64,000 nt of DNA from contig NC_089432.1 in NCBI RefSeq assembly GCF_026210795.1, forward strand, positions 1,674,001-1,738,000. Reading direction: 5' to 3'. Under the pieces are notes generated by a model. It did no database searches. It saw nothing but the letters and a program-made list of their open reading frames with translations, and was not told where the DNA came from. The position numbers were made by a program, and so were the translations under genes. The DNA is from Rhizophagus irregularis. Its lineage: Eukaryota. Shown piece by piece: positions 7,271 through 59,800 of this stretch. The stretch's first letter is position 1. Every line of letters starts with the position of its first letter.

Positions 7271-7492
7271 AGGACCCAGAAATAAATATATATAGGGGTC
7301 AGGTGATGAAAAAATTTGTACGCATTTTTTCAGGGCCGGAATTATGATAATGTCAGTCGGTTACTATAATAGGAAATAAAATTCTGACTGGCATTATCAA
7401 AAATTATCTCAAAAAGGAAAGATTTTCATGATTTTTTTAGTTCAAAATACGCAAACTCAAACCTGACCCTTTTATATATATTTCTGGGTCCT
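7271..7492. mobile_element. MITE, AGGACCCAGAAAT family (copy 1)
   Basis: TIR AGGACCCAGAAATA..TATAGGGGTCAGGT / ACCTGACCCTTTTATATATATTTCTGGGTCCT; 8-bp TSD ATCCTGAA on both sides. Confidence 0.9.
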
Positions 7493-8223
7493 ATCCTGAA
7501 TGGCCGAAAATGAAACGTGTTTAGTAAGACAAATTAAGCTTTTTTTTCGTTAAACACAGATTTGTTGGATGCCGATCGTATCAAATATGGGGGATCCGAA
7601 ATAATCTTATCTGTTATGTTAAAAAAAGTTAACTTTAACGTTAATGTTAACGTTAACATTACGTTTCATTTCGTATCTCATGAAACAATTCTTAGCCAAA
7701 ACCCAAGCGAGCAAGGGAGTACTTATACAATAATTTTTTTATTGGAAATTATTGGATAATGCAAGATTTTAAGATTATAATAAAGTTATCAATTGAATTA
7801 CTAATAATTGTTTATTTCATTAGAAACAATTAAACCAAAGATGTTCAACAATTGGATGATAAATTTTAATCAATACTTTATCAAGTAATAAACCATTTGT
7901 TTTTTATTATTGTATTGTTATTTATAGTTAATTATTATTACAAAGATTTTTTTTTTTGAAATTAATTAAGCCAAATGAATAGATATTAATTTTTTTTTTG
8001 TTATCATCATATTTTATAACACAAAAAAAAAAATCTTTTTCAAAGTACGTTAAGCCAAAAATGATCAACAAATCGATCACTGCTTACTTTTATGCAATTT
8101 TTGACAAAAATTTGCGCAATACTGCAATTGCGATTTATCAAATTTTCTTTAAAGATAATAAAAATTTTATGATAATCTCCAAAATTGCTGATTTAAAAAT
8201 ACTTTGTACAAAAGTCTTCTAAA

Positions 8224-29900: not shown

Positions 29901-31947
29901 CAAAGTATTTAATTGTTCTTAGAATTAATGGTTAATTATAAAAGTAAACTCAATTATGGTTACAAAGCCGTATCTTGCTGAAACGCCGAAGTCCGAAATT
30001 ATTTCAATGAATTAATTTACTTAATAGCCGAAATTATATCCAAAATTATTTGAATTCTTTAACCTAAAATATACTAAATTGCATAGTTATTTTAAATTCT
30101 TTTATATAAAAAATATTTCAAATCCGAAATTCTTGCGAAATTACATTTTTTCAAAAATCAATTTAAAGGCCATCTATACATACTGTATGACAACATTTTC
30201 TTCGTGAATTTATTTTTTTATATTGTGATATAAGAAAAGGAAAACATGGACGAAATCGAGATTGAAATAGACGAACGCATAAAAGAAAGTGAATCTGTTG
30301 ATGATCTGGAAAGTGGGAACCATACAAATGAAGAAAAAATTAATCATATAGCAGTTAGCCCAGACGGTTCGATTGTAGCAACGTTTAATCCAGGTAAGTT
30401 ATAATATTATTTTATGTATCAATTTTTATATTAAAAGTATGAAGTTATATTCCTCTAAACTTATTTTTTTCAGATGGTACTTCCATATCAATTGCAAAAG
30501 TAGCAACAAATTACAAGGCAAATAAACAATTTAATATAAATAAATTCAAAAAACCAACTAATATTCTTGGATGGTCTTTAGCAGTTTCGGACATAATCGA
30601 TACTGAAAGTGAAACTTGTTTGGTTGCAATTTCTTGTGTAACTAATAATGACATAAATCTAAAAGAAATTGAGGAAGGCAGTCTTCGAGAATTATATAGA
30701 TCATTTCAAATTTTTATCAAAAAACAATTATCATTCTGGGATTCCCAACTCTTTTTAATCTTATTATTTATTTCATATATTGCTATCTCTACTTTTATCC
30801 CTACTTTTATTTTGAATTTTGACAGCACCTTTGATAAATCAAATCTTTTCTTTTACCTGTTTTTTGTTATCATTACCATTTGCACTCTTTTCTATTACGA
30901 ATATACTCACATTCGTAAAATTCTAGGAACCGATATTAAACAATTTCGATTATCCTGTACTTCTGGTGAAGGGATGATAAAACTTTTTATGTATTCATTT
31001 AACAATGATGATAATAACAATAACGATTATAACAACAATTCGATATGTCATATTGGTGGAGCACTTACCTTTTTAAAAAATTCTAAAAATTCATTAAAGA
31101 ATGTTGCAACTCTAATTTGCATGAATTGTGTAAAAATACAAAAGATTAATGTCAAATTGAACAAAAATATCTCTATATCAAAAGAAGGTACCTATTTATT
31201 ACCAGAAAATTTATTTAAAAAATTAGAAAGCATTGATGATTCAAGACGCAATTGGAAATATCTTTTAAAATCTAGGTTTCAGGAATATTTAGTGGTTAAT
31301 ACAAGCAATTACCAAAAAATAAATATTGAAATATATAATGTAAATAATTTACAATTAGTGAATGTTTTTTATAGGAATCGTGAAGAAAACCTTTTAATTA
31401 CAAATGATAACGAACCTAGAATTTTTGCGATATCAACTGATTCAAGATTATTTGCTTATTCTTATGGAGATAAAATTATTACACTTTATTTAATGGAAAA
31501 TGGTCTTGAAGTTGTTTCAAAAAAATTTGACAACATTTATAAAATTAAATTTTTAGAATTTATTGAAAAAGATAAAAAATTATTCATTATTGAAGAGAAT
31601 AAAGAACATGATGTGAAATTTCATATTTGGATTATATCAGGATGTTTAAATGATTATTTTTCTATTTCTAAAGATGATATTGGTTTATCGGATAGTAATA
31701 TCCCTACTCCGTCAAAATATGATGAGCATTTCTACTATACTCTGGCAAAAGCAAATGGAAAAGTTGTTTTTCATAATAAAGATAATGAGGATCAGTTTAA
31801 AGTTGTACATGAGATAATTACAAAAAGGACAACCTTTGGAGAAGACGACACTGTAGTTGATGAGCATGAATATAAATCATATGATCTAGAACCATGGAAT
31901 AATAGTACAAAGAATGTTCGAGGTACAGTGCGGTACCTCTATAATAG

Positions 31948-33871
31948 CCCTATGAAAAAAAATCATCCAATTTTTGTACAATATTTGTTCAAGTCCGTAT
32001 GGAAATTGTACAATTATTGCAGATTTTTGGATAAAAATAGCTATGAAGTTTTTCATAGCATATTAAAAGTATGCAATTTTTGTACAACTTAAATTTAGGA
32101 TATAGAAAATGTTCAATTTTTGTGTGATCTTTATACAACTTAAATTTAGAATACAGAAAACATTCAATTTTTGTACAATAAAAATTGTGATTATTGTACA
32201 ACCCCTATGAAAAAAAATCATCCAATTTTTGTACAATATTTGTTCAAGTCCGTGTGGAAATTGTACAATTATTGCAGATTTTTGGATAAAAATAGCTGTG
32301 AAGTTTTTCAAAGCATATTAAAAGTATGCAATTTTTGTACAACTTAAATTTAGGATATAGAAAATGTTCAATTTTTGTGTGATTTTTATACAACTTAAAT
32401 TTAGGATACAGAAAACATTCAATTTTTGTACAATAAAAATTGTGATTATTGTACAACTTGAAAATAGACTTAAATTTAGGATACAGAAAGCAATTTTTAG
32501 GTAATCCTACTATACTACTTTCCATCTTACCTGTATGGTTACATTTGACCACTTTTAGGGTCGAATTAAGGTTGCTTGTCTAAACCTCTTCAAAATCCTA
32601 CGATTAGTTTCGTCAAAATTTTACTATAGATTTATTATAGTTTCGGCAGAGTTTCGGCAGTTTCGGCATTTATAATAAGTTTCGGCAGTTTCGTCTTTCT
32701 CCAAAGTTTTGCCAGTTTTTTAATATAACTTTAATATAGTTTCGGCAGAATTTCGCTTTTCGGCGAAACGCCATCTTGCCTAAACCCCTAGGTTTCGGCA
32801 AGCAACCTTAGGTCGAATAGACCACTTTTAACCATTACAAATAGATTTTCCTAAGTAAAGTGATTTATGCAGTAAGGTTACACAAAATTCAACTGCATAT
32901 TTGCTTATAAACGGGCATCTTCCGGACCCATTGGTGAAATTTTTGTATCATCTTGTAACTAAAAAAAAGTCAAAAACTTTTTATTAGGTTACACAATTAG
33001 TTCTGACCGGAATTATAATTTGGCCAGAATTATGCGGTAAAAATCAACTCTTAAAATTATATATGTTGATCACGTGATCTGATCGTCAAAATAAATATGA
33101 TGACGCGAAATGTTTTTGTTTATGTTTTTTTAACCTTTTAACTTTTCTTCAACTTTCTTTTAAAATATTAAGTAAGAAAAACTTGTGTTCTTTATTTTTT
33201 TATTTTCCTAACTTTTTACATTTTAATGTTATTAACTTGCTTTCTTCACTAACTTCATACTTTTTTTTATTACTAATACTAATAATTTACTTTTTAACAC
33301 TACTAATTTGCTTTCTTCACTAACTTCATACTTTTTTATTACTAACACTATTAATTTACTTTTTAACACTACTAATTTGCTTTCTTCACTAACTTCATAC
33401 TTTTTTATTTAATACTAATAATTTACTTATACTAATAATTTACTTTCTTCTTTGATACTACTAATTTACTTTCATGTTACTAACATACTTTATTTTATTT
33501 TATTTTCTTACAAATTTTTATATTTATGATTATATCAAATTCAGTATTTTATTTATGAAATATTGTGTATATTTTTTATATTTTAAGTCAATAAAAAAAA
33601 TTCATAATTTCACTTTATAAATTGCCTGTTATTACTGTAAAATTTAACCTATAATTCCTAAAATATGGCCTAAAATTTGGCTCAAAAATCACACAATAAT
33701 TGTATAAATTCAGGTCAAAAATAGGATAATTATTGAATGAATTACCATGCAATAATTGTGTGATTTATTGCAATTTTTAGCACAATTATTGTATGGTCAA
33801 ATATACAGAAATCGTAGTGAATTTAATTGAATGATTTTTCAACAAAAATCACACAGACTTTTTTCATAGGG
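31948..33871. mobile_element. Non-autonomous TIR element with CCC...GGG termini (CMC/EnSpm-like, superfamily uncertain)
   Basis: CCCTATGAAAAAA ... TTTTTTCATAGGG; the first 255 bp are tandemly duplicated (second copy starts 32203); TTGTACAA/ACAATWATTG subterminal repeats. Confidence 0.75.
32567..32810. mobile_element. hAT-like MITE nested in the CCC element
   Basis: TIR TAAGGTTGCTTG / CAAGCAACCTTA; 8-bp TSD GGTCGAAT; internal GTTTCGGCA repeats. Confidence 0.9.
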
Positions 33872-36226
33872 TATAATGATTTGGAGTTATGTGATGACTT
33901 GGAATTAGAAGACACGTATCTAAAATCGGCCAATGATTTGACATTAGCTTTAAAATTTTGTCAAGGTAACATTTTTAATTTCTTTGTTATTTACTATATA
34001 TTTTGACAACCAATTTCATTATTAGATCGAGATGCTGTTATGTTAGCATATTTATTAGAATATTACTCTGAAAATTCTATGACTCATATTGGCTGGATGA
34101 TTAATGTTACAAAAATACTTCCAGAGTTATCAGAATTATCTAATCATGATTATTATGGTATAATAATGTATTTGTTATTCAATTAATATTATTATATGTA
34201 TATATATTTCATTAAAAAAGATATTATTTTTTATTCATATAGGTAATTATATGGATTTAATACTCTATAAACCTTGTTTTGGAGAAATGAAGTACAATTT
34301 TCCAATTAAAAAATTCCGAGCGTTATCAGTTTGTCAAGATACATTAGAAGTATATGTACCTCTTACTAATCTTTTATCAACAAATTCTTCGGATCTTTTT
34401 TTATATAATAAAATGAGGTATACATCATATAATCTAATTAATTTTAGATCTTTTACTGATGATATTTCTTAATACAGGGAGGATATATTGCCCAATACTT
34501 ATATGGTTCCACTTCCAAATTTTACAACACATGATGCAAAAATTGAAGGAAAATCCAAAAAAGGAATTATACCTTTTTTGAAAAAAACATTTTTTCCACC
34601 TGGCTATAAGAACTTTGGAGACGAAAAATTTAGCCCATTTCTTCAAATTAAAAAAAACGAAGAAGTATTTTTTAGCATTCCAGCAATAGAAGCAGCTATA
34701 AATTCAAGATGGCATCAAGCAATGGCATATTGGATAAGACCATTATGTTTATATGCTATATTTTTAATTCTGTTTGCTATTATTCTTCAGTTTTACAAAG
34801 TACAAGATGTAACTGAATTTACGCAAGTCGGAAGCGGAATATTTTATTATATTGGATTATATCTATTAGTAAATGAATTTATGCAAATAAGGAAGTATAA
34901 GGTCAAATACATTACAATATTTAATTTATTTGATCTAAGCAGTATTATTTTGGGTATGATTGCCGTTTCTTTGGATTTTGTTTTTTTCGTACCCATTATT
35001 TATACAGTAGTTACATTGATACTTTGGATTGAAATGGTATGGTTTATGACTTTTGGATACTAATTTTTAATAATTTTACATTAATTTATCTTTACTTTCT
35101 AAAGCTCTTATGGCTTCGATTATTTTCAGTAATAGCCATAAATATTTTTATTTTTGGAAATCTTTTGAAAAAGATCACACCATTTTTTACATTTATGTTT
35201 ATTTTAATAATTGGATTTGCGAATTCAATGTAATAGTATTCTTGTTTTTATTGTTATATTAAGCATGATATTAAAGAAAATTAACTTTATTTTATATTTA
35301 TATGCAGAATTTTTCTTCTTGTAACCCCATCAAATTTAACTTATACATTAGAAGATAAAAATGCAGAATATAGTTTCACAGGTCCAATTCAAGATAATCC
35401 TGTTGATACAATATGGAATGCTATACTTTCCATGTACTATTTGAGTACAATTAATTTGAATAGTTATAGCGATGATTCGCTATTTAAGCTATTTATTTTT
35501 GTTGCTAATGTTGTTATAGTTCTTGTTCTATTTAATATGATTATTGCATTGATGAAGTAAGTAATATATTTACTAAATAGTATTTGTTTAAATGCTTATC
35601 TGACCTTTAAATTTATGTTTAGTGACACATTTAAAAAAGCCAAAAATGATGGTAATATTGGACTTTTGATGTACAGAAAAGAACTTATTGATGATTTTGA
35701 AAGACTTGATATTCCCTTTAATAAACTTCAACTACATGATTCACCATATATTTGTTATCTTCAGGATCCTAACTTGATGAAAAAATGGATGAAAAAATCT
35801 CAAGAGCTTAGAAAAACAAAATTGTATTCATGGTTTAAAGAGAGTGTTGATAAAGAAAATATAACTTATGATGGAGTTGACATTACACCTTGGTATAAAC
35901 TTATTTTAAGTAATGAGAATCAAGATTCTATATCAACTCCTGATCATATGACACTTTGGTTCTAGTTCTTTTACTTTTATTTTTATACTTAGATTATATT
36001 GTATTTATTTTGATGTACTTTTTATTTTATTATTATTTATTCATTAAAGAATTAATTAACATGATATTATTTGATTAAATTTTAAAATAAATCTTTATTT
36101 TGTTCAATCTCTATATATACGAAAGTATGAAATTAAGTATATTTTAAATATATTTTAAAGTATACTTTTAGTGTATAAAAATATACTTTACTGAAACCCA
36201 TGAAATCGCGACTATGTAGTAGCCAT

Positions 36227-36855
36227 TGTAATGCCGTAGTATATCTAGTAAATTTATTAATTGTGAGGCGCAGTATTACATTTAGTCTTAGTGTATAAAA
36301 TTTTAACTTATTTTTATTTTTATTTTAATTGGACCGAAAAGTCGTTAAACTATTAATCATGAGAATCAAGGATAATTGGTCTGTGATGACCTTAAACTAT
36401 TAGTCACGAGATTTAAGGATAAATGAAGATCCGAAAGATACTAAATTGGATGAAATCAAGTGATCTGAGGTGTCAAGTGATTAATTTGTTGATCACTACG
36501 TTAATATTATAAATCATAATTCAGGAGTTCATGATGATCAAATGGATACAAAATTAAGATAATGGAAATACTTTAAGATAATGGAAATACTTTAAAATAA
36601 TGGAAATACTTTAATAATTTAAATCCATGAATCGAAATTATGAATTTAGTTACACAAAAACAAACATAAAAGGGCGTGAAGATCAACTATTGAAAAAATA
36701 GAGAAATTGGACGAATTTTGTTATGAATTATTTATTTTGTTATTTAATGTTATTAAACCAAGCATATTATTGTATTTATTTATATTATGAATAAAGAGTC
36801 ATTTTGTTAATACCTGAGGTGGCAAACATAATTCTCTATGGGCTCAGGTGTTACA
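36227..36855 (+). repeat. 5' LTR
   Basis: TGTAATGCC...GGTGTTACA; matches the 3' LTR except T36382 versus C46759 by eye. Confidence 0.98.
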
Positions 36856-37448: not shown

Positions 37449-37657
37449 TTCTGTGTGAACTCAATTGAGGTTTTCTGTGTGATCAATTGAGAATAGTTCT
37501 GTGTGAGCTTTTTCTGTGTGAACTCAATTGAGGTTTTCTGTGTGATCAATTGAGAATAGTTCTGTGTGAGCTTTTTCTGTGTGAACTCAATTGAGGTATT
37601 CTGTGTGATCAATTGAGAATAGTTCTGTGTGAACTTTCAAAAACAATTCTGTGTGAG
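37449..37657 (+). repeat. 63-bp x3 tandem repeat with ~10 TTCTGTGTGA motifs in the element's 5' leader
   Basis: Directly visible periodicity. Confidence 0.9.
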
Positions 37658-37771: not shown

Positions 37772-38455
37772 ATGGAATACAAAATCAATTTAACAAAAGA
37801 GGATTCAGAAAAATATTTGTGTAAAGGAAAAGGAATTAAATTAAAAATTTATAATGAAGACAATAAGGCCATCAGTCTAAAGACCATCTATGATGTTAGA
37901 CCACCCAAGAAAAAGAAAAAGAGATGTTTGACCTGTGATAATAGAGAACATGTGAAAAGGACCAAAAGTGAGAATAAAGTGGAAAGATTTATAAATGAAT
38001 TGTTGACACCGGTAAATGTGGAAGACCTATTGATACCAGAAATACAAAATGTAGAAATTCATGATGTTGAAAAATTAGTAGAAAGATACATCAGTCTTGG
38101 AAATACAAATGGTAAAAACATCTTAATATGGTACAATATTGGACAAATTTTTGAACGAGAAATTAAAGCAAGAATAAATCAAACAAAGCCAGACCAGACA
38201 GCTAGAGAAGAATTATATGATGAAATGATGGAATTTATAGTTAATGAAAGTACTGATGAAAAACAAAAGAAGAAGGAAGCATTAAGGAAAAGGATGCAAG
38301 GAGCTATAAAAATATATAAACTTTTTACTGAAATTGGTCAAGATAAGATATATAGAGTAAAGGAAACATTTGTAACGACTATTATAAAATTGACAAATCC
38401 GGAAATACAACAAATAATCGGACAAATCAAATATGGATTCACACTTCAACCTTAG
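37772..38455 (+). CDS. Retrotransposon accessory ORF1 (227 aa), function unknown
   Basis: Intact ORF with AAAATGG start, basic PPKKKKKR (NLS-like) segment, CxxC and a helical C-terminus RKRMQGAIKIYKLFTEIGQDKIYRVK. Confidence 0.8.
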   Translation: MEYKINLTKEDSEKYLCKGKGIKLKIYNEDNKAISLKTIYDVRPPKKKKKRCLTCDNREHVKRTKSENKVERFINELLTPVNVEDLLIPEIQNVEIHDVEKLVERYISLGNTNGKNILIWYNIGQIFEREIKARINQTKPDQTAREELYDEMMEFIVNESTDEKQKKKEALRKRMQGAIKIYKLFTEIGQDKIYRVKETFVTTIIKLTNPEIQQIIGQIKYGFTLQP

Positions 38456-38619: not shown

Positions 38620-41600
38620 ATGGAATGGTACCATGTTTGGAACGCTGGATATATAAACCATAAACAGGAACATGACCTAGGAGTGATAGAACCAGAGGAA
38701 TGTTTAGCATGTGAAATATGTAACCCAATAGAAAGAGAAGTATCAGCGGCATTCAAGAAATTTTGGGATGTTTTATTTAAATTCGAGGATACAATACTAA
38801 TGTACAATAATGTAACACATAAAGAATTATTGAATTTATTAAGTATGGACAATAGAGAAAGGGAGGATACAATACATAAAGGAAAATGTAGGAATATAGT
38901 AGATAGAATAATTGAATCAATAAGGTACAGACAACAACCAAAAATGAAAGAAAAAGGTTTAAGGATAATAATTGTAGTAATTGTAAGGGATTGTATTGAA
39001 GGAAATTTGGAAAATGAAGTATTTGACCGGTTAATTGGATGTCCAGAAATAATGGAACATGGATATATTTTGGAAGATTGGGATATTGAAAACAGATTTC
39101 AAAAATTTTGGGAATGGTACGGTTCAATATTAGAATTTGGGGTGGAAGTAATCCATGCGACACCAGAAACAATAGTAATATTCAGGGAATTATTATACAT
39201 GGAAGAAATCATAACTGAAAATATAGGAAAAGTAATTGATTTAACGAATACAATTGTTTACAGGAACCCATTAAGAGAGGGAGAATCAAAACAACAAGAA
39301 TGGGAAAGATTGATACAGAAAGTGTTACAAAGATTTATTGACACCAAACAATTTACAAGGGAACCTGAGGACCCAGAAAGTGATAGTCCTGAAAGTTATG
39401 AATTAGAGGACAGTGATGGTAGTATACATTATGAAATAAAAATAGAGGATGATGTCAAATGGACAGTGGAATCATTAAAAAGAAAAATTGAAGAAATGGG
39501 TGGAAGGTTCACCGACAAAGATATACAAAGAATGTGGGACCTAAGGATAAGGATAGAATTGATATTAACAGAGGACTTTTTAGGTACATTTTTCGAATTA
39601 ATGGGACTAAGTGATGAAAAATTAAAAGATGAAATAAATGAATGGTTAACAAAAGAAACATTAATATGTGGAAATTGTAGGAATAGAAAGTTACCTGATA
39701 TGATAGCAGACATTGGACAATGTAAAAATTGTGAACAAGAAGTATTATTAGAATTAAAGGACGACTTAGAAAAACTAGGGTACGAATTAAATGTGTCAGA
39801 AATAGGGAGAATAAGAGAATTCAGGATAAGCAATAGTATAATATTAACAACGGAATTTATGGAAAAATATCTCCAGGAAATTGATACGAATGACAAAGAA
39901 TTAAGGATAAAATTATATGAATGGATAAATGAAAATACCACATTTTGTGATGAATGTGGAATAAGATGGATGAACAATAAATTTGACGAAGGAAAAACCA
40001 AGTGTAGGGATTGTGAAAATGACGAAAATGAAATTGATATCAGGGTTAAAAGATTAAAACAAATATGTGATGATAATAAAATAGGAATAACTAATGGAGA
40101 GTTATTGAGGTTAATCAGTATGGGATATACTGATGGAGAAATACTGGATCAAGAATTTATTGAAATATTCCAAGGAAATAAAAATGAAATGGAGAAAAAT
40201 TTAAGGCGAATATTAGATAAATTTCTAAAACAGCAAGCTGGAATTGAGGATAGTGAAAGTAGTGGAAATGAATCTGATAATGAAAAATCTGATGGATCTG
40301 AAAAAGAATCAGATGGATCTGGAAAAGACGGAGAAATTTTAAATCCAAATGATACCGATAACAATGAAAATTTTGAAGAACCTTATGAAGAAAACATTAT
40401 AAATAGACCTGGTTTTGACTCAAGTGAAAGTTCAGAATCAAACCCTGAGGATAAAAGTGAAATATCTGATTATAATATAGAAAATTTATTTGAAACACCT
40501 TTAACACCACCGATACCACCAATTCTACCAATAGTACCAATAATTATAGGAGCAACAAGAGCTGAAGTAAGGGAAGATTTTAGAGCGGCTTTACTAGCAG
40601 CAACAGGACATGATATAGGAGGTAATTGGGCTGGATTAGTCGCAGCCAATCCATTAGCAAATGCAATTGAGGATGCAGGAAATGTAGCTGGAGGAATAAT
40701 TAGTATGCCACAATTTTATGGAAGGGAAGAAGAAGACATAAACGATTGGGTAAGACAATTTGAAACAGCATTTACTGCTATAGGAAAAGCAGCAGGAGTA
40801 AATGGAGCTAGACAAGCAGCAATGGCAGCTACCTGTTTGAAAGGTGCAGCAGCACAATGGTATAATGAAAAGAAGGAAGCAAACAATGGTCATTTGGTAA
40901 ATTGGCAAGATAACGATAATGATAATGATTTAAAACATAGGATTAAACAACGATTTACCAGGGAAGATGTTAGAAAAAGGAAAATGTTAGAATTAAGGAA
41001 AATAACACAAGGAGTAAATGAAAATGTTGAGGCATATACGATAAGGTTTAGACAAATATTAAGGATAGCTACCAGAGGCCATGCATTAGATGATGAATTA
41101 CAAGTGGATAATTATATCGAAGGATTAACACCAACATTGGGATATCAAGTCAGAAGACAAAACCCAGCAAATTTAAATGATGCAGTAAATACAGCAAGGA
41201 GAGAAGAGGAAGCTACTAATGAATTAATGAGAAAAACACTTAATATACCAATTAATACCCAAAGAAAAGGAATCGATATACAAGACGACAAGCCAAAGAA
41301 TATATTTGAAAAACCATTGGAGAAAAATTATGAGGATGACCTTGCCGACATGTTTAAAAAATTAGAGGTAAAACTAGTAAATCAACTTGGAGGGCAAAAG
41401 AGACCACCAAACAATAACAATAGACAAGGACCACCACCTCGAGCATGTTATAATTGTAAACAACCAGGACATTATGCAAATGAATGTAGGGTAAATAATG
41501 GTCAAAGAAACTATGGAAGACCAAATAATCAAAATTATAATAGAAGATCAAATAACTATAATGGAAGACCAAATAACTATAACAGACCACCAAACCACCA

Positions 41601-42204
41601 AAACAATAATCGAGGATTCAATGTAGTGGAATATGATAATTATAATGACCAATATGACCAATATGATTATGATAGTCAGGATTATCAGGATAATTATGAC
41701 CAAGGATATAGTTATGATGACCCGTATTACCAAGATAATGATGTAACATTTAACCATGTTGATCAAGATTTTTATATTGGTGAAAGACAAACGAGAAGTA
41801 ACATAAAGAATAGGTCAAGTAATCGAGATATAGATATGGAAATTGACCAAGAACAAACACGAAGAAGGAATAATAAATATGCAAGCCAAGAGGAAAGGGC
41901 AGCAGCATTACCAAAAAGAGGATTCACTGATGAAAGTCTGAGGAAAGCACAAGAAGCAAGGAGAAATAATAATACATGTAGAAATTGTGGACAAAGAGGT
42001 CACTATGCAAAACAATGTAAAAATGAACGTGTTGAAGGTATCCATAGGACAAGCGCATTTCAGAGGAACATACCAGAATATAACATAATAGAGGATCTGA
42101 AAAATACCAGAGCAAATGCAACCTTTTCACAAATTATAAACATGAGTCCAGAGCAAAGGAAAATATATTATGAAGGAATGAGAAGGTATCCACAAACAGA
42201 TTGA
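38620..42204 (+). CDS. gag: Gag polyprotein with a long N-terminal extension (1194 aa)
   Basis: Ty3-type capsid from ~40705 (PQFYGREEEDINDWV...LKGAAAQWY...QGVNENVEAYTIRF...YIEGL); two CCHC knuckles CYNCKQPGHYANEC and CRNCGQRGHYAKQC. Confidence 0.93.
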   Translation: MEWYHVWNAGYINHKQEHDLGVIEPEECLACEICNPIEREVSAAFKKFWDVLFKFEDTILMYNNVTHKELLNLLSMDNREREDTIHKGKCRNIVDRIIESIRYRQQPKMKEKGLRIIIVVIVRDCIEGNLENEVFDRLIGCPEIMEHGYILEDWDIENRFQKFWEWYGSILEFGVEVIHATPETIVIFRELLYMEEIITENIGKVIDLTNTIVYRNPLREGESKQQEWERLIQKVLQRFIDTKQFTREPEDPESDSPESYELEDSDGSIHYEIKIEDDVKWTVESLKRKIEEMGGRFTDKDIQRMWDLRIRIELILTEDFLGTFFELMGLSDEKLKDEINEWLTKETLICGNCRNRKLPDMIADIGQCKNCEQEVLLELKDDLEKLGYELNVSEIGRIREFRISNSIILTTEFMEKYLQEIDTNDKELRIKLYEWINENTTFCDECGIRWMNNKFDEGKTKCRDCENDENEIDIRVKRLKQICDDNKIGITNGELLRLISMGYTDGEILDQEFIEIFQGNKNEMEKNLRRILDKFLKQQAGIEDSESSGNESDNEKSDGSEKESDGSGKDGEILNPNDTDNNENFEEPYEENIINRPGFDSSESSESNPEDKSEISDYNIENLFETPLTPPIPPILPIVPIIIGATRAEVREDFRAALLAATGHDIGGNWAGLVAANPLANAIEDAGNVAGGIISMPQFYGREEEDINDWVRQFETAFTAIGKAAGVNGARQAAMAATCLKGAAAQWYNEKKEANNGHLVNWQDNDNDNDLKHRIKQRFTREDVRKRKMLELRKITQGVNENVEAYTIRFRQILRIATRGHALDDELQVDNYIEGLTPTLGYQVRRQNPANLNDAVNTARREEEATNELMRKTLNIPINTQRKGIDIQDDKPKNIFEKPLEKNYEDDLADMFKKLEVKLVNQLGGQKRPPNNNNRQGPPPRACYNCKQPGHYANECRVNNGQRNYGRPNNQNYNRRSNNYNGRPNNYNRPPNHQNNNRGFNVVEYDNYNDQYDQYDYDSQDYQDNYDQGYSYDDPYYQDNDVTFNHVDQDFYIGERQTRSNIKNRSSNRDIDMEIDQEQTRRRNNKYASQEERAAALPKRGFTDESLRKAQEARRNNNTCRNCGQRGHYAKQCKNERVEGIHRTSAFQRNIPEYNIIEDLKNTRANATFSQIINMSPEQRKIYYEGMRRYPQTD

Positions 42205-42744
42205 CTACAAGAATCAATGAACAACATTGAAGCAGAACATTTAACTGCATTAAGGGGTAAATTAATAATAAACCAAGAATTAAAGGACGTAATGTTTGAT
42301 ACAGGAGCAGCAGTAAATGTAATAACTAGTCAGATAATGGATGAAATGGACCTAAAAATTGAGGAACCGAGTACAGTAAGATGTGTGATGATAAATGAGG
42401 ATAAATTAGCATCTAGGGGTACCACGACAATATACATACAATTTGGGGATAAAGAAATACCCATTAAGGTTGAAGTAATTGATTCAGGAAAAAACGAAAT
42501 TGTGTTAGGAAATGGAGTATTAGATATGTTCAAAGCAAATATAGATTACACAGATAAAACAATAATAATTAGAATGAATGATGAAACTATGGATATACCA
42601 GTAAAATACACACAAAGGACCATTAAAGGGTTTGAAGAAACATTTGATGAAGAGGAAATATTAGAAGAATTATACCAGGATGAATTGTATAACATATATG
42701 AAGATGACCATGAAGGTCAGGAAGATGAAAATTTTAAAATATAA
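42205..42744 (+). CDS. Aspartic protease, in frame with gag behind a single TGA
   Basis: FDTGAAVNVI catalytic motif and IVLGNGVL; same frame as gag. Confidence 0.9.
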   Translation, partial: LQESMNNIEAEHLTALRGKLIINQELKDVMFDTGAAVNVITSQIMDEMDLKIEEPSTVRCVMINEDKLASRGTTTIYIQFGDKEIPIKVEVIDSGKNEIVLGNGVLDMFKANIDYTDKTIIIRMNDETMDIPVKYTQRTIKGFEETFDEEEILEELYQDELYNIYEDDHEGQEDENFKI

Positions 42745-44219
42745 GTCTTGGTCAGAATGATACTGAAGAGACGATAAAGAAGCACAAAAGTGACCATGAA
42801 AAATTTACTGAAAAATTTAAAGTAGGGGACATAACCAATGAACAAAAAGGTAAATTAAAAGTATTAGTAGAAAAATATAAGGATATATTTGAGTACGATG
42901 GTGAAAAATATAATAGGACAAACCTAGTAAAACATGAAATCAGATTAAAAGGGGGTACTGAACCATTAGCCCAAAAGAGGTACAAAGAAAATGATGAAAA
43001 AGGTAAATTCATCAGAAAAGAGGTTGACGAGATGTTAAAATTGGGAAAAATTAGAGAATCTAGAAGTCCATGGTCTTCACCAGTGACTTTAGCAGGGAAA
43101 AAGTCGGGAAATTATAGATTTTGCATCGACTATAGAAAATTAAATAAAGTTACAATAACAGATGCATATCCATTACCGAGGATTGACGAACAATTAGAAA
43201 GGATAAGTTCAGGAAAATGGTTTACCAGTCTAGATTTAGCATCAGGGTTTAATCAGATAGAAATGGCTGAGGAAGATATTGAGAAAACAGCATTCATATG
43301 CTCAGCAGGATTATATGAATATAATGTCATGCCATTTGGGTTAACAAATGCGCCTGCAAGTTTTCAAAGGTTAATGGATAAAGTATTAAAGGAGTACCTA
43401 AATGAATTTGTGATAGTATACATTGATGATATAATGATATATTCGGAAAATTTTGAAGACCACCTAAAACACATAAAGTTAGTGTTAGAAAAATTAAAGG
43501 AAGCCAGTTTAATACTAAAGTTAAAGAAATGTATATTTGGGAAAACAGAAATAGAATTTTTAGGACATGTAGTTGGTAAAAATGGATTAAAACCAAGTCC
43601 AGGAAAGGTCGAAAAGATACAAAAATTAACAGCACCTATAAATATAAAAGGTGTAAGGTCAATATTAGGGTTATGTACGTATTATAGAAAATTTATTAAA
43701 GATTTTTCAAAAATAGTAAAACCAATAACATCTTTATTGAGAAAAGATGAAAAGTTCGAATGGGGCATCAAACAACATGAAGCATTAGAGATATTAAAAA
43801 GGAAATTAACCGAAGAACCGGTGTTAAGACAACCAGATTGGTTAAGGAAATTTATATTAATTACAGATGCTTCAGGAGTAGGATTAGGGGCAGTGTTAGC
43901 TCAAAAAGATGATAAAGGTCAAGAATATGTAATAGAATATGCCAGTAAAAGTTTAAACAGGACAGAACAAAGATGGCCAATAACCGAACAAGAATGTTAT
44001 GCAATTGTATGGGGAATACAACATTTCCATAAATACTTGATCAATAGAAAATTTGAGGTAGTAACAGACCATGCAGCTTTGAAGGGATTAATGACTGCAA
44101 AAGTACCAAAAGGAAAGAGATCAAGATGGGTCATGGAATTGGAACAGTATGATTTTGAAATAACCCATAGACCAGGAAAAGAAAATAAAAACGCAGATGC
44201 CTTATCAAGAATAATATAA
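42738..44219 (+). CDS. pol: Reverse transcriptase-RNase H (frame open from 42738, -1 relative to protease)
   Basis: VKHEIRL..PLAQKRY, SPWSSPV, RFCIDYRKLN, LDLASGFNQI, MPFGLTNAPASFQ, YIDD, TDASGVGLGAVL, EQECYAIVW, TDH, NADALSR. Confidence 0.97.
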   Translation, partial: NISLGQNDTEETIKKHKSDHEKFTEKFKVGDITNEQKGKLKVLVEKYKDIFEYDGEKYNRTNLVKHEIRLKGGTEPLAQKRYKENDEKGKFIRKEVDEMLKLGKIRESRSPWSSPVTLAGKKSGNYRFCIDYRKLNKVTITDAYPLPRIDEQLERISSGKWFTSLDLASGFNQIEMAEEDIEKTAFICSAGLYEYNVMPFGLTNAPASFQRLMDKVLKEYLNEFVIVYIDDIMIYSENFEDHLKHIKLVLEKLKEASLILKLKKCIFGKTEIEFLGHVVGKNGLKPSPGKVEKIQKLTAPINIKGVRSILGLCTYYRKFIKDFSKIVKPITSLLRKDEKFEWGIKQHEALEILKRKLTEEPVLRQPDWLRKFILITDASGVGLGAVLAQKDDKGQEYVIEYASKSLNRTEQRWPITEQECYAIVWGIQHFHKYLINRKFEVVTDHAALKGLMTAKVPKGKRSRWVMELEQYDFEITHRPGKENKNADALSRII

Positions 44220-44255: not shown

Positions 44256-44495
44256 ATGGAACAAGTGGTAAGAAATACAAATCATAAAATAAAGGATATA
44301 ATCGAAAATTTAGAAGGTATAACAAAGGAATTAAACAGGATAAAGTATAACTATAAATTCAAAGCCAAAAATTTTGAAGATAGTGAAGAAAGACCATTAA
44401 TATTGGAAACTCAAGAGGAAATATTACAAATAGGGGTGATATTAAGTAAAGTAAACAAGCTAAAATTATCAGAATTATGTAAAAATGGGACCTAA
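44256..44495 (+). CDS. Small accessory ORF (79 aa, predicted coiled coil) between RNase H and integrase
   Basis: AAAATGG start; heptad-like IKDIIENLEGITKELNRIK; overlaps the next ATG by 11 nt. Confidence 0.55.
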   Translation: MEQVVRNTNHKIKDIIENLEGITKELNRIKYNYKFKAKNFEDSEERPLILETQEEILQIGVILSKVNKLKLSELCKNGT

Positions 44496-46266
44496 AATAA
44501 TAATCATATGTGGAGTTGATGGTACTGGAAAAACATTCATTGTAAATAAACTTATAAAAGAATTTGAAAAAGTAGGACAAAGTGTGAGGTTTAACACCTT
44601 TAAAAGGAGAAGAGAGGACAATGATAAGTATAAAATACCAAAGAAAGGTATAGAATGGGAATTCAGGAAGGAAGTTGTCGAACAAATCAACAGGAGAATG
44701 GAAGAACATGATAATGAAGATTGGTTAATATTAGATAAAAGTCCCTATAGTGAGTACTTTTATCAACAAACACCATCATTCGACAGAGGATACATAACAA
44801 GATATGAGAACCACCTATTAGAAAAGGAAGTATTTAGGAACAAAAGGATAATTGATGAATCAATAGTGATATTTTTAGAAAATGAAAAATGTTGGGAAAA
44901 TTACAAAGGTAGAGAACATTCGAAAAAGGATCAAGGACATAAAACATCATATCCATTATTAGATGAAGAAAGATATATGGAGATGGTGAAATCATTTAAA
45001 GAATGTCAAGATATTTACGAAGGAGAAAAATATGCTAATATTAAAATATCGAATAATGACACAGATTGGGAAAGAGTATATAATAAAGTAATAGAATTAG
45101 ATGGAGATAAACCACCAATAGAGGTTAAAAATGTTGAGATTAAGGATAACATCAGAGTAACTGATGGTAAAAAGCATATTGAGAAAAATGGTAAAAATAT
45201 AAGAATAATAGAAGACTTTGAAAAGATGGGAGCACTATATTTAGCTCACAGTCATGAATTATCAGCACATATGGGAATCAAAAGTACTTATGATAATTTA
45301 AAAGATAAATATTATTGGGAAAATATGCTGAATGATGTTGAAAGATATGTAAGGACATGTGATGAATGTCAAAGAAGAGGAAAACCACAAGGGAAAAATG
45401 AATTACACCCAATTAAAGTAGTAGAACCATGGTATCAAATCGGGATCGACTTTGTTGGACCATTGAACACAACAACAAATGGTAATAAGTACATCATAGT
45501 AGCAATGGATTATTTTACAAAATGGCCAGAAGCCAAAGCAGTAAAGGAAGCAACTGCCAAAGAAGTATCAAAATTTATTTATGAAGACATCATTTGTAGA
45601 CATGGATGTCCAATGAAAATATTGAGTGATAGAGGAAGTCATTTCAATAATGAAATGATTAAAGAATTAATGGAAAAATTCAAAATTAAATGGAATTTTT
45701 CTACAAGTTATCATCCAGAGACAAACGGACTTGTTGAAAGATTCAACCGAACATTAGGTCAAGCATTAGCAAAATTATCAACCAAAGATGATTGGGATCA
45801 AAGGATAGCACCCATATTATTTGCTTACCGAAATAAAAAGCATAGTTCAACAAGAATTCGACCATTTTATTTAACATACGGAAGAAATGTACGGACAATA
45901 ATGGATGAAAATATCAAAGAAATTAACCTAAGTGATAGAATAGTTGGATTATTAGAAGAACTACCAAAAATCTGACATGAAGCCAAAGAACAAATACTGA
46001 AATCTCAAACAAAACAAAAAGAGTATCATGACAGAAAAATAATCAAAGAACACACCTTTGGAATTGGAGATAAAATACTACTCTATGATAAAGCCAAAGC
46101 ACAACAACTATCGGGAAAATTAGAATCAAAATGGTTGGGACCATTTTACATTCATGAAATACTACCGAATGGAGCTTATAGAATTAAAAATATTAAAGGT
46201 GTCATCAAGAAGATACCTGTAAATGGAGAATTATTAAAGACTTACCATACACCGATGAGTAAATGA
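44485..46266 (+). CDS. dNMP/thymidylate-kinase-like P-loop domain fused to integrase (internal TGA at 45973-45975)
   Basis: N-terminal IIICGVDGTGKT and LILDKSPYSEYFY; HHCC (AHSHELSAH..CDEC); DDE core (GIDFVGP, SDRGSHF, VERFNRT); after the TGA the same frame continues with a GPY/F domain (GKLESKWLGPFYI) to TGA 46264-46266. Confidence 0.92.
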
Positions 46267-46603: not shown

Positions 46604-47232
46604 TGTAATGCCGTAGTATATCTAGTAAATTTATTAATTGTGAGGCGCAGTATTACATTTAGTCTTAGTGTATAAAATTTTAACTTATTTTTATTTTTAT
46701 TTTAATTGGACCGAAAAGTCGTTAAACTATTAATCATGAGAATCAAGGATAATTGGTCCGTGATGACCTTAAACTATTAGTCACGAGATTTAAGGATAAA
46801 TGAAGATCCGAAAGATACTAAATTGGATGAAATCAAGTGATCTGAGGTGTCAAGTGATTAATTTGTTGATCACTACGTTAATATTATAAATCATAATTCA
46901 GGAGTTCATGATGATCAAATGGATACAAAATTAAGATAATGGAAATACTTTAAGATAATGGAAATACTTTAAAATAATGGAAATACTTTAATAATTTAAA
47001 TCCATGAATCGAAATTATGAATTTAGTTACACAAAAACAAACATAAAAGGGCGTGAAGATCAACTATTGAAAAAATAGAGAAATTGGACGAATTTTGTTA
47101 TGAATTATTTATTTTGTTATTTAATGTTATTAAACCAAGCATATTATTGTATTTATTTATATTATGAATAAAGAGTCATTTTGTTAATACCTGAGGTGGC
47201 AAACATAATTCTCTATGGGCTCAGGTGTTACA
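46604..47232 (+). repeat. 3' LTR
   Basis: 629-bp direct repeat of 36227-36855. Confidence 0.98.
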
Positions 47233-48479
47233 CCATGCTGCCGCCACTTAACGTAGTAGGCGTACGGCTACTCTATATTAATTCTAACGCAGTTGTATGT
47301 ATTTAATATAGAAAATATATAGTAGATTATCATCATAATATAGAAATTGTATCGCCAATACAAAGAAACTATATAAATGTTAGCTAGAAACTGTATAAAT
47401 GATTTAAAGTAATGATATATGTGATTTGCATTAAACATGTAGTAAATTCATAGAAAATTTGTATTAACTTTATAATAAATATGCAGTAAATACATAATAA
47501 GTATATAGTGAATTCATAGTAAATACATAATAAATATATAACAAATTGCAGTAAATATATAGTAAATTCACAGTAAATACATTAAATATATAATAACAAA
47601 TTCATAGATATGAGTCTGATCACATTCCAAAAATCGTTAAGTATGGCGCAGCAAAATTGCGCCAAGTTCTCATGAACGAGACCCGGGAAATAAATTTGGA
47701 TGGGACGCATGATTAGGTGGCGTAGTCAGCCAAGCTGATTGGGCAGAAACTTTACTGCGGTATTTTTGGGACCCGAATGCGGAACCTCGTGGCGATGGTG
47801 TCCTAGCCAGCTAACGGAGATGTAAAATGTACTGATTGTAGGAAGTGTCTGGGGTATTTTACTACAGTCTCTTCTAATAATACGTAAGAAATAATTTCTG
47901 GTCGGACTTATCCTACGTAATTCGTCCCTTCGGCGTTTTTTTTGAAATTTCACGGATGCTCCTAATACAAATATTTCCAATAATTACAGGACACTATTTA
48001 CCAATATATATGGAAACCAGAACGTGAATGGTTCAAAACCTTTCAACTCCTCAAAAAAAGACAAATCCATTATCAACGTCGCTCAAAGAAAATTCGTCAT
48101 ACGGTAAACACAATCCTGCAACCACATCCACTTCATTACACCATACTCTCCGAGGTAATTCTCCGATCTCACTCAATCCTATGTCATGTGTCCCTATCTA
48201 CGTACCCTCGAAGAAAAAAGAAAAACACTTCATCTTTCCTATGAAGCTCGTAAATAACACCTCTCTACCGACGACGCGTTCATTAAATGGACGTTATCAA
48301 ATTATTCGCAGGCACTTGGATGTCTCATAGAAATATAGATAGATTTTTTTTTCTTTCGTATATAGAAAGTGGATTAGGTAATGAGGAATAAAGTGTATAG
48401 AATTATTAAAAAAATCGCGTTCTAAAGTTCACAGAAAGAGAAGTGAAAAGTTAATAACAATCACTGAAAGTAAATAAAT

Positions 48480-50570
48480 CTAAATAATCTAAATTAAAAA
48501 AACGAACTTATCATAGTTCGTTCTTTTAAATCCTGGTCGTTTAGCTTCGTCTCACGTCCAGGTTTCCTAAAAATAAAAGAAAGGGAATGTTAATAACGTT
48601 CCCTTAAGTAAAAAATAAAAATAGAAATAAAGAAACGAACTTACCATAGTTCGTTCTTTTTTTTTAAATCCTGGTCGTTAACGTCTTAACGATTTCGTTC
48701 GTCTAAGTTTCCTAAAAATAAAAGAAAGGGAACGTTAATAACGTTCCCTTAAGTAAAAAAAATAAAAATAAAAATAAAAAACGAACTTACCATAGTTCAT
48801 TCTTTTTTTTAAATCCTGGTCGTTAACGTCTTAACGATTTTGTTCGTCCAGGTTTCCTAAAAATAAAAGAAAGGGAACGTTAATAACATTCCCTTAAGTA
48901 AAAAAATAAAAATAAAAATAAAGAAACGAACTTACCATAGTTCGTTCTTTTTTTTTAAATTCTGGTCGTTAACGTCTTAACTTCGTTCGTCCAGGTTTCC
49001 TAAAAATAAAAGAAAGGGAACGTTAATAATGTTCCCTTAAGTAAAAAACCTAAGTAATTAATAGCGCAAGTAAAAATTAAAAAAAAAACCTAAAAAAAAG
49101 AAAAATGAACCCTTACCGCCTAGTTCGTTCTTTTTTTAAATCCTACGTTAACGTTCGATTAACGTTCGTTCATCCAGGTTTCCTAAAAATAAAAAGAAAG
49201 GGAACGTTAATAACGTTCCCTTAAGTAAAAAATAAAAATAAAAATAAAAAAGCGAACTTACCATAGTTCGCTTTTTTTTAAATTGTTCGTTTTTTTTTAA
49301 CGTCTTAACGTCGTTAATCAGGTTTCCTAAAAATAAAAGAAAGGGAACGTTAATAACGTTCCCTTAAGTAAAAAAATAAAAATAAAAATAAAAACGCTTA
49401 CCTAGTTCGTTCTTTTTTTAAATCCTGGTCGTTAAAAGTCTTAATGATTTTGTTCGTGGTTTCCTAAAAATTAAAAAGAACGTAACGTTCCCTTAAGTAA
49501 AAAAATAAAAATAAAAATAAAGAAACGAACTTACCATAGTTCGTTCTTTTTTTTTAAATTCTGGTCGTTAACGTCTTAACTTCGTTCATCCAGGTTTCCT
49601 AAAAATAAAAGAAAGGGAACGTTAATAACGTTCCCTTAAGTAAAAATAAAAAAAAAACCTAAAAAAAAGAAACGAACTTACCATAGTTCGTTCTTTTTTT
49701 TTAAATCCTGGTCGTTAACGTCTTAACGATTTCGTTCGTCCAGGTTTCCTAAAAATAAAAGAAAGGAACGTTAATAATGTTCCCTTAAGTAAAAAAATAA
49801 AAATAAAAATAAAGAAACGAACTTACCATAGTTCGTTCTTTTTTTTAAATCCTGGTTGTTAACGTCTTAATGATTTTGTTCGTCCAGGTTTCCTAAAAAT
49901 AAAGAAAGGGAACGTTAATAACGTTCCCTTAAGTAAAAAATAAAAATAAAAATAAAAAATGAACTTACCATAGTTCGTTCTTTTTTTTTAAATCCTGGTC
50001 GTTAACGTCTTAATGATTTTGTTCGTCCAGGTTTCCTAAAAATAAAAGAAAGGGAACGTTAATAACGTTCCCTTAAGTAAAAAAATAAAAATAAAAATAA
50101 AGAAACGAACTTACCATAGTTCGTTCTTTTTTTTTAAATCCTGGTTGTTGACGTCTTAACGACTTCGTTCGTCCAGGTTTCCTAAAAAAAGAAAGGGAAC
50201 GTTAATTACGTTCCCTTAAGTAAAAATAAAAAAAAAACAAACAAAAGAAACGAACTTACCATAGTTCGTTCTTTTTTTTTAAATCCTGGTCGTCAACGAC
50301 TTCGTCCACGTCCAGGTTTCCTAAAAAAAAGAAAGAGAACGTTAAATTACGTTCCCTTAAATAAAAAAATTAAAAAAAACCTTAAAAAAAAGGTTCTTTT
50401 TTTTTAAATCCTGGTCGTTAGGCTTCGTTCGTCCAGGCTTCCTAATAAAAAAGAAGGAACTATTAATTACGTTCCCTCAAGTAAAAATAACAAAAAAAAA
50501 GAAACGAACTTACCTAGTTCGTTCTTTTAAATCTTGGTCATCCTGCGTCCGTTCGTCCAGGAAAGGGTTT
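48480..50570 (-). repeat. ~146-bp tandem array (~15 units) with an exon/intron-like unit on the minus strand
   Basis: Unit contains GAACTTACCATAG...CCAGGTTTCCTAAAAATAAAA...GGGAACGTTAATAACGTTCCC; the minus strand reads TTTTTAG|GAAACC...CTATG|GTAAGT. Confidence 0.9.
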
Positions 50571-56869: not shown

Positions 56870-59800
56870 ATGGATGAAATCGAAACCGAAATAGACGAAC
56901 ACATAAAAAAAAATGAGTACGTTGAAGATCTAGAAAGTGGTAATTATACTTACGGAGAAAAAATCAATTATGTTGCCATTAGCCCAAATGGTTCGATAGT
57001 AGCAAAGTTTAATCCATGTAAGTTATATTTGATATATACTTTATTCAATTTTTCATTTTAAAAATAATAGGGTAAATTCTTCCTAAACTTATTTCTTCAG
57101 ATGACTCTTCTATATTAGTCACAAAAGTGACGACGAATGCAAATAAAAATATACCCTTCGATAAGAAAAAATTCTTTAATAAAAAACCATCTAATGTTTT
57201 TGGTTGGTCTTTAGCAATTTCGGACATAATTGATGAAGGAAATGATATTGGGTTGGTTGCAATTTCTTGTGCAACCGACATAGACACAAGTCCAAAAGAA
57301 ATTGAAAAAGAAAATTTGCAAAAAGCATCAATTAGAAAACAATTATTAATATTATTGCCAGATTTCCAATTCATCTTAATTTTCTTATTTATTTGTTATT
57401 ATTCGGTCATTATTGGTTACACACATAATTTAAATCTTTACTTTTATCTATTTTTTATTATCATTTTCATGAATATTCTTTATTTTTACGAATCTTATAA
57501 CACTCCTAAAATCCTAAAGACTGATATAAAGCAATCTCTTATTTCTAGTGAAGGAATGATAAAAATTTTTAAATTTTCATTTAACGATAACAACAATGAT
57601 AAAGAAGACGATAATTATTCAATATATCATCTTGGTGGAGCTGTTACCTTTTTAAATAATTCTAATAAGAATAGTACAACACTTATCTGCATGAATTGTG
57701 TGGAAATACAAAAAATTAATATTATATTGGACAAGAATATTATTATATCAAAAGAAGGTATCTATTTATTACCTGAAAATTTATTTAAAAAATTAGGAAG
57801 TTTTAAAGATTCAAAATGCAAATGGAAATATCTTTTAAAATCTAAATTTCAGAAATTTTTAATGATTGATACGAGTAAAAATGATCACGTACAAAGCATT
57901 GAATTATATGATGTTAATAATTTACAATTAATAAATGTGTTTTATAGACATCTTGAAGATTGCTTAATTTCAAATGATAAAAACCTGGAATATTTGCGAT
58001 ATCAACTGATTCAAGATTATTTGCTTATTCTTATGGAGATAATATTATTACAATTTATTTAATGGAAAGTGGACTTGAGGTCGTTTCAAAGAAATTTGAT
58101 AATATCTTTAAAATTAAATTTTTAGAATTTATTGAAAAAGATAAAAAATTATTCATTATTGAAGAAGATAGAGAAAGTAATGTGAAATTTCATATTTGGA
58201 TTATATCAGGATGTTTAAATGATTATTTTTCCATTTCTAAAGATGATATTGGTTTATCGGATAGTAATATCTCTATTCTGTCAAAATATGATGAGCATCA
58301 TAATGCTTTTACAAAAGCAAATGGAAAAGTAGTTTTTAAAATTGATGGGGAACAGTTTAGAACCGTACACGAAATAACTATACAAAGAACGATTTTTGGA
58401 GAAAATGATGCTGTAACTGATGAGTATGAATATCAATCATGTAATCTAGAACCATGGAATAATTATGATAATACAAAGACTATTAGTGGTAGATTTCTTA
58501 ATAACGACAAAAGATTGCTTCTTATAATTGGTCAAAATAGCATTCAACTATGGAAATCTAAATCCATAAATTTTGTAGATTTTAACAATTTTAAAAAATT
58601 TTGAAAATTCGAATCTTGTTTATATTTTAATAAGTGATAGCATCGAACCAGAAAAAAAAGCCAAATTTCAAATTAATGATGACATGACTACCATTATATC
58701 TCATGCATGTAGATCACTTGCTTATCTATATAAACATACAAAAAGTATTTATTCTAGAGAAAAATATCAAAAATTCATTAACGGGATCATGTATATTATT
58801 AAAGACTTTATAAAAAATTATCCTGATAATTGGAAACTTATGGAGGTTCAACACCCTTTAATGGCATATCTAATTTATTCACGCTCATTTTCTCTAATCA
58901 AATATATTCTGTTTGAAACTAATACCCATGCTAAAATGTTACACAAACCACAAAGTAAATATACATATAACAATTATTTGGAATCAGCCAGTGATTTGAA
59001 ATTGAAATTATTTGAAGATTTAGAATTGAATGATGAAAGTTTGAAACCAGCTAATGATTTGGAATTGGCTTCAAAATTCTGTCAAGGCTAACACTTTAAG
59101 TTCATCCTTGTTATTATTAAGTAATAAGTAATATATTTTTAACATCAACTTTATTAATAGATCGAGATGCTGTTATGTTAGCATATTTATTGGAATATTA
59201 TTCTGAAAATTCTATGACTCATATTTGTTGGATGATCAATGTTACAAAATACTTCCAGAATTATCAAAATTTTCTTATAATGACTATTATGGTATATTGC
59301 AGTATTAAATTTTAGTGTTAACTTATATAAGCTTTGTTATTAAAAGTATTTATTATTAATTAATATAGGTAGTTATATGGATCAATTATTTTACAAGCCT
59401 TGTTTTGGAGAAATGAGATATAATTTTTTAATTAGAAGATTTAAAGAATTATCAGTTTGTCAAGGTATATTAAAAGTATACGTGCCACTTACTAGTATTG
59501 TACCAAAAAATTCTTTGAGTTATAAGAAAGTAAGGTATGTATCATTTAATTTAACTCACTCTTTATAAATCTTTAATTTATTGTTTTTATCTTTAATGTA
59601 GGGAGGATATTTTGCCTGATATCTATATGGTTCCACTCCCAAATTTTACAACACATAATTTTAGGGTTGTAGAAAAGGATGGAAAAGGAATATTTAAAGG
59701 AATTAAAAATTTCATATATTTGTTGGGATATATATTCCTTCCACCAGGTTATAAGAAATTAGAAGACAAATATTTTAGTTCATTTCATCAAATTAAAAAA

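Follow-up and report, generated by a model that had tools for sequence, protein, structure and literature searches.

A dedicated domain at the N-terminus of Gag is a feature usually linked with retroviruses, and the locus described here raises the question of what an extension of more than 600 residues in front of the capsid represents in a long terminal repeat (LTR) retrotransposon of a fungus. The analysed stretch (the window) comprises 64,000 nucleotides (nt) of Rhizophagus irregularis contig NC_089432.1 (positions 1,674,001 to 1,738,000, forward strand); all coordinates below are window positions. It contains a Ty3/Gypsy element of ~11 kb with a gag open reading frame (ORF) of 1194 amino acids (aa; 38620–42204, + strand), the extension being the 5′ half of this ORF. 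Most Ty3/Gypsy Gags start at the capsid, as a preliminary description of the sequence had stated and as is borne out by PMC10309623. We find that the extension, hereafter the arm, opens with an undescribed domain family, denoted ZA, which is N-terminal in Gag clade-wide, and that both the family and the architecture are real, within a known kind of element. The preliminary description gave the extension ~695 aa; it likely ends at residue 642, because residues 643–695 constitute the conserved start of the core Gag.

Two repeat families in the arm

All motifs quoted in the preliminary description were located at exact residue positions of the gag ORF (HDLG at 18, CLACEIC at 28, FKKFWDV at 45, SIRYR at 100, FQKFWEW at 160, TIVYR at 211, LKRKIEEMG at 286, LKDDLEKLG at 379, LKQICDDNK at 479 and PLTPPIPPILPIVP at 627). 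Its C4 pairs are present as well (C350xxC-x14-CxxC371 and C443xxC-x15-CxxC465), and its two repeat families, here A and B, held up in shuffle tests and profile–profile comparisons. The B1/B2 pairwise score of 118 exceeds the highest value from 2000 shuffles, 59; pairwise, neither B1/B3 nor B2/B3 is significant (scores reached by 839 and 153 of 2000 shuffles), and the profile–profile probabilities are 98.8% for B1/B2 and 94.1 and 95.8% for the pairs with B3. The relationship between A1 and A2 appeared weak at first, the pairwise score being reached by 100 of 2000 shuffles and shallow profiles giving 12.6%; deeper profiles gave 61% (E 8e-5), with a score of 25.4, the best of 100 column shuffles reaching 15.6. 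A profile built exclusively from eight units of distant metagenome loci finds both A1 (residues 6–120, 50 bits) and A2 (residues 155–216; 19.3 bits, a score that none of 500 shuffles attained, their maximum being 7.6); its alignment probabilities with A1 and A2 are 95.7 and 96.2%, respectively. The A and B families are unrelated in profile comparisons (probability <1%).

The first search for homologues of aa 1–550 returned 43 proteins, all named R. irregularis and at most 95% identical; a second homologue search gave 47 matches and added R. diaphanus and R. clarus. Three representative clusters comprise 96, 203 and 106 members.

ZA, a clade-wide N-terminal domain of Gag

The H/C motif, listed separately in the preliminary description, is present and forms part of the first A unit, with H14, H18, C31 and C34 as ligands; C28 of CLACEIC is not conserved. 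Because distant loci carry HxxxH...CxxC followed by F..FW as a unit, the motif and the first A repeat make up a single domain of ~125 aa, the ZA domain. Its helical bundle is predicted, with low confidence at aa 1–11 and 23–42, and zinc binding by the HHCC site is likewise a prediction.

A capsid-based scan of metagenome contigs yielded 17 loci (L001–L017) with capsid identities of 24–57%. A single ZA unit precedes Gag in L004, L005, L006, L010 and L013, two complete units are present in both L008 and L009 (L007, a member of their family, is truncated on the 5′ side), and L001 carries ZA, A2 and B ahead of Gag; L003, L011, L012 and L014–L017 are truncated or broken ahead of the ZA region. A ZA profile search of 1.84 billion representatives gave 550 protein clusters at E ≤ 0.001. 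The follow-up took in 150 listed clusters, the 146 new ones forming the analysed set, and the counts that follow are those among these matches listed. ZA lies within the first 30 residues in 142 of the 146, and the ligands H, H, C and C are kept in 139/139, 128/139, 142/143 and 141/144 aligned rows (92–100%). Two ZA units were detected in 21 matches and three in one, at the threshold used. A capsid was seen in 13 of the 21 proteins with at least 150 further residues, and most of the remaining matches are short, probably fragments. Pfam assigned Gag-type families to 11 of the 36 longer matches and no family to 25; the only domain other than Gag or protease was dUTPase/DCD-like, in a Gag-protease protein. 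In proteins of sufficient length for a judgement, ZA is mainly combined with Gag. An organism was named for one of ten matches looked up, namely, R. irregularis.

The arm has no Pfam, PHROG or NCBIfam match above the curated cut-off. ZA shares the ligand order His-His-Cys-Cys with the integrase-type HHCC zinc domain, a likeness of order only (His spacing 3–4), and comparison with the integrase N-terminal domain gave no match: six ZA units and aa 1–40 of the window protein had no Pfam row, and no PDB row fell below E 0.1. A literature search, which left aside supplements, Repbase and GyDB, found no description of the ZA family or of its architecture; two papers on Rhizophagus transposable elements treat Gypsy elements at the superfamily level in the portions seen (PMC8647823, PMC11075540). 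The preliminary description had named two findings that would tell against its proposal, namely, repeats without statistical support and a region that is a standard domain of the clade. The repeats are supported statistically, and the first unit does turn out to be standard for the clade (550 clusters), albeit unnamed.

A hypervariable ZA duplicate and variable B repeats

Judged from its sequence, A2 is a copy of ZA that has lost the zinc ligands. Across 25 close copies of the element, A2 falls into nine classes with a median identity of 36% between classes, and the same class representatives are 94% identical in the 60 aa upstream of A2 and 72% identical in B1. Among seven distinct complete copies, the median identities are 100% for A1, 38% for A2, 97% for B1, 92% for B2 and 98% for the capsid. 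At least three A2 classes occur under one strain name. Such sharply bounded variation within a conserved scaffold is the pattern that would be expected from a specificity surface in conflict or from module swapping.

The three helical repeats of ~95 aa in the preliminary description are present, with a helical unit of ~65 aa (five helices); the period of 93–100 aa takes in an optional zinc finger. A model of B2 with finger 2 (predicted local distance difference test, pLDDT, 93; predicted template-modelling score 0.81) contains five helices, a hairpin and a short helix. By hidden Markov model, one, two and three B units were counted in 12, 7 and 17 of 36 proteins spanning A1 to capsid; four are discernible by eye in P0036 and P0067. 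The C4 finger behind the B units is optional, and the hydrophobic pattern is kept across 142 units. In a capsid-only search with candidates restricted to proteins of at least 656 aa, all 42 proteins contained at least part of a B unit upstream. Structure and profile comparisons, in which a three-helix UBA/CUE-like fold was also considered, gave no safe fold assignment for the B unit; an EF-hand resemblance (centrin, E 0.046) obtained with a 3-sequence profile was gone with a 19-sequence profile.

The boundary between arm and core Gag

The acidic linker and a conserved Met likely mark the start of the core Gag. This pre-capsid Met occupies one alignment column in 28 of 30 distinct segments of Rhizophagus relatives after the acidic linker (background 1.9%), the two exceptions being one deleted copy and the window copy, which has Ile at codon 643; contigs of 4/4 sequencing runs read G at 40548, within this codon. 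Met643 could serve as a second start or as a site of protease cleavage. A hydrophobic residue and Met followed by a small residue resembles retroviral protease sites; a start is slightly favoured, because intact relatives do not have Leu, Phe or Tyr in place of the Met. Since 102 ATG triplets lie upstream in the element, initiation at Met643 would need a separate transcript or internal entry.

What the arm may do

By the features tested, the arm is not a retroviral matrix and it matches no named family. It has no N-terminal Gly myristoylation site or basic membrane patch (it starts MEWY, and its first 40 aa have a net charge of −7). Fold comparisons gave no match to retroviral matrix. The arm has no membrane-spanning segment, the highest 19-residue hydropathy being 1.54, in the Pro linker. 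The accessory module proposed in the preliminary description is supported, since the arm lies in front of the capsid, in frame with Gag, and has no curated family match, and since Gags of Ty3/Gypsy elements mostly start at the capsid; 'matrix-like' applies to its position only, and anti-silencing and trafficking would be candidate roles.

We favour the reading, with a probability of roughly 45%, that the arm sits in the matrix position, faces outward and interacts with the host, part of it serving as a variable specificity cassette. The 642-residue arm, composed of ZA, the hypervariable A2 and three B repeats with C4 fingers and fused to Gag, would be displayed on the outside of the capsid, and the Gag precursor or particle would bind host proteins through it. 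ZA would be the ancestral part, A2 likely an exchangeable specificity surface, and the B repeats and fingers lineage-specific additions. Arm and core would be separated by the second start at Met643, giving long and short Gag as in glycoGag of murine leukaemia virus (MLV), or by protease cleavage at this site. In Ty3, the N-terminal domain of the capsid faces the cytosol (PMC6525542). The arm might act as a host-protein adaptor in matrix position because it is acidic overall, has no membrane segment and is attached to this end of the capsid; for the first two reasons, binding of proteins fits better than binding of nucleic acids or membranes.

Several points weigh against this reading. No significant fold match or convincing Pfam or PDB match was obtained for any unit of the arm. 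The A2 variation was recorded at the protein level, at which diversifying selection, module swapping and relaxed constraint are not separable. Eight of the 21 longer ZA proteins among the matches listed have no detected capsid, and several gene models lack whole units. As for the boundary, the count of 28/30 stems from about five related lineages, similar Met residues in 14 metagenome loci were picked by eye, and an automatic test at the acidic boundary of 15 distant proteins found the Met in 5 of 15 (expected share 0.24, p 0.30). Two further points, the rarity of B units and the frame break in L002, are taken up below with the explanations that they favour.

The arm could instead be a nuclear regulator that binds the RNA or DNA of its own element, in RNA export or anti-silencing, like CERV for Cer1, with A2 variants tracking element-specific target motifs. 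The arm holds three predicted zinc sites, the C4 finger locally overlays SBP DNA-binding fingers (24 aa, root-mean-square deviation 0.5 Å, E>1), and all ten + strand copies of TTCTGTGTGA in the window sit inside the leader array of the element. Furthermore, transposable elements are methylated in R. irregularis, which also produces small RNAs from its young Gypsy elements (PMC8647823), and CERV has a Cys4 loop and an N-terminal half in common with Gag (PMC10309623). We nevertheless consider such a regulator unlikely, the acidity of the arm fitting nucleic-acid binding less well.

Less probable again is that ZA alone is needed, as a structural Gag assembly domain, and that A2, the B units and the fingers are tolerated expansions of little function. 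The variable number of B units and the optional fingers agree with this, as does the occurrence of B in just 5 of the 146 ZA matches listed, which makes it a lineage add-on. However, B2 keeps a confidently predicted fold, the hydrophobic pattern persists across the B units, and B1 and B2 are conserved between copies while A2 alone varies, a pattern that uniform drift would not give. It is also highly improbable that the arm represents an additional ORF upstream of Gag, comparable to the eORFs of Ogre/Tat elements, with its stop absent by chance and Gag translated from Met643 alone, on a transcript of its own. Arm and Gag share one frame in the window, in those other loci that have both parts intact and in 13 distant proteins, and a pyrimidine tract ahead of the Met is missing from most loci. 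What speaks for such an ORF is that ZA is in another frame than Gag in L002, with a frame break between them, that eORFs are common in plant Ty3/Gypsy elements (PMC6317226) and that the conserved Met has a purine at −3 in 14/14 loci checked, a weak sign on a purine-rich strand.

The host element

The element is a young, near-intact Ty3/Gypsy (Metaviridae) LTR retrotransposon (Table 1). It has a TG...CA LTR pair, a primer site, a polypurine tract, a capsid with zinc knuckles and the Pfam order protease, reverse transcriptase (RT), RNase H, integrase; the best PDB match of its RT is Ty3 RT (E 1e-97). The insertion is young, because the LTRs differ at only 1 of 630 positions and a CCAT target-site duplication flanks both ends. 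The integrase tail (45976–46263) has no chromodomain by Pfam, the only row being a weak SH3_Tf2-1 (E 0.01), and the element does not classify as a chromovirus. Despite its near-identical LTRs, the window copy is probably non-autonomous, because it deviates from the contigs of 4/4 runs in two places, codon 643 and the integrase stop.

Table 1. Features of the element, in window positions
Feature	Position	Strand	Remarks
5′ LTR (TG...CA)	36227..36855	+	1 mismatch in 630 nt versus 3′ LTR; CCAT duplications
tRNA-type primer site TGGTGCATGC	immediately 3′ of 5′ LTR	+	
Leader tandem array, 63-nt unit x3	37449..37656	+	carries TTCTGTGTGA copies
ORF0, 227 aa, separate ORF upstream of gag	37772..38455	+	
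ZA domain, aa 1–125	38620..38994	+	predicted zinc site HxxxH...CxxC and F..FW helical bundle
A2, aa 155–243	39082..39348	+	ZA duplicate without zinc ligands, by sequence; aa 167–238 hypervariable
B1 five-helix repeat, aa 283–348	39466..39663	+	profile comparison, structure model
C4 zinc finger 1 (C350, C353, C368, C371)	39667..39732	+	predicted
B2 five-helix repeat, aa 376–441	39745..39942	+	structure model
C4 zinc finger 2 (C443, C446, C462, C465)	39946..40014	+	predicted
B3 five-helix repeat, aa 476–540	40045..40239	+	without finger behind
Acidic Ser-rich linker and Pro/Ile-rich segment	40255..40545	+	net charge −21 in 80 aa
Likely core Gag start: codon 643 and conserved pre-capsid segment	40546..40704	+	
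Capsid (Retrotrans_gag, Ty3_capsid) and two CCHC knuckles, stop TGA then CTA	40705..42204	+	
Protease, same frame as gag, behind stop, and RT/RNase H in −1 frame (42738–44219)	42205..44219	+	
Thymidylate-kinase-like domain fused to integrase, separate ORF	44485..46266	+	stop at 45973–45975 in present copy
3′ LTR, polypurine tract in front	46604..47232	+	

ORF0 has no family match above the cut-off. It varies between copies, because its contig depth is below that of gag and one contig of high depth passes over part of the ORF. Close behind the element (48468–50500) lies an array of ~13 units of ~145 nt each with internal palindromes. The window also contains three dispersed, partly similar multi-kb blocks (~18800–23000, ~30400–35900 and ~57000–61400), the long ORFs of which have no Pfam match above the cut-off.

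The pol region and captured enzymes

The stop of Gag, or Gag-protease, in the window is TGA followed by CTA (42202–42207), and the next ORF is in frame. Among the loci that run on into pol (L001, L003, L007, L008, L010 and L013), TGA-CTA occurs in five of six and TGA-CCA in the sixth, the following ORF again being in frame. PMC13517186 lists UGA CUA among the contexts of readthrough, and readthrough of the Gag stop is likely. Between protease and RT, the frames are in a −1 arrangement with an overlap of 7 nt (42727–42744), which is gap-free in high-depth contigs and recurs in L001; the obvious slippery heptamer would lead into a stop, leaving a frameshift or a splice as candidate routes into RT. 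RNase H ends in a stop, followed by a 79-aa ORF (44256–44495) and by the kinase-integrase ORF (44485), each with a AAAAATGG start. The integrase frame differs from the RT frame also in L007, L010 and L013.

The thymidylate-kinase-like domain ahead of the integrase (44485–45129) matches PHROG 761 (E 1.5e-13 over aa 3–195), and its P-loop motif recurs in 18 family proteins; a literature search found no paper on thymidylate kinase in gypsy retrotransposons. L013 carries a NUDIX and deoxynucleoside kinase ORF between RNase H and integrase (6939–8249; Pfam E 3e-9 and 2e-9), and in P0250 the protease is followed by a dUTPase. The clade seems to collect enzymes of nucleotide metabolism. Two further ORFs of L013, one of 552 aa upstream of gag (1234–2889) and one for an Mrr-type endonuclease downstream of the integrase (12108–12749; E 4.5e-8), may or may not lie within the element.

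A wider picture, which we regard as possible rather than probable, would be that of an undescribed, diverse Ty3/Gypsy clade resembling complex retroviruses, with a zinc-binding Gag domain in the matrix position, the duplicate of which became a hypervariable cassette that is exchanged or diversifies through conflict with host restriction factors, together with captured thymidylate kinase, deoxynucleoside kinase, NUDIX and dUTPase, UGA-CUA readthrough and a separate integrase.

Implications and comparison with known systems

A conserved, unnamed domain that opens Gag in hundreds of sequence clusters provides a marker for the whole clade and an instance of a matrix-position module invented independently. 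The A2 cassette, with its sharp bounds, makes host–transposon conflict in arbuscular mycorrhizal fungi directly testable. The family also underlies many Rhizophagus gene models annotated as 'hypothetical protein', which need re-annotation.

GlycoGag of MLV adds 88 residues and is a membrane protein, whereas the arm is 642 aa long, starts with ATG and lacks a membrane segment. With glycoGag (PMC5120145), the arm shares the arrangement of an in-frame N-terminal Gag extension as an accessory protein, the long and short forms of Gag being putative here. The element resembles Ty3 with its Gag3 and Pol3 in the LTRs, primer site, capsid, CCHC knuckles and order of protease, RT, RNase H and integrase; by contrast, Ty3-type Gags start at the capsid, and the present element has the arm, ORF0, a Gag-protease stop and an integrase encoded together with a kinase domain in a separate ORF. 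Cer1 of Caenorhabditis elegans is likewise a Ty3/Gypsy element whose Gag has a large N-terminal domain of non-matrix type, along with an accessory part that contains Cys (PMC10309623). The domain of Cer1 is a coiled coil and CERV is spliced, whereas the arm consists of tandem globular repeats with HHCC and C4 sites. Finally, the eORFs of Ogre/Tat elements and the Burro polyprotein likewise add coding capacity of unassigned function to Ty3/Gypsy elements, with interrupted pol frames (PMC6317226 and PMC6431247); the eORFs are separate and heterogeneous and the Burro extras lie behind Gag, whereas ZA is fused ahead of Gag and conserved throughout the clade.
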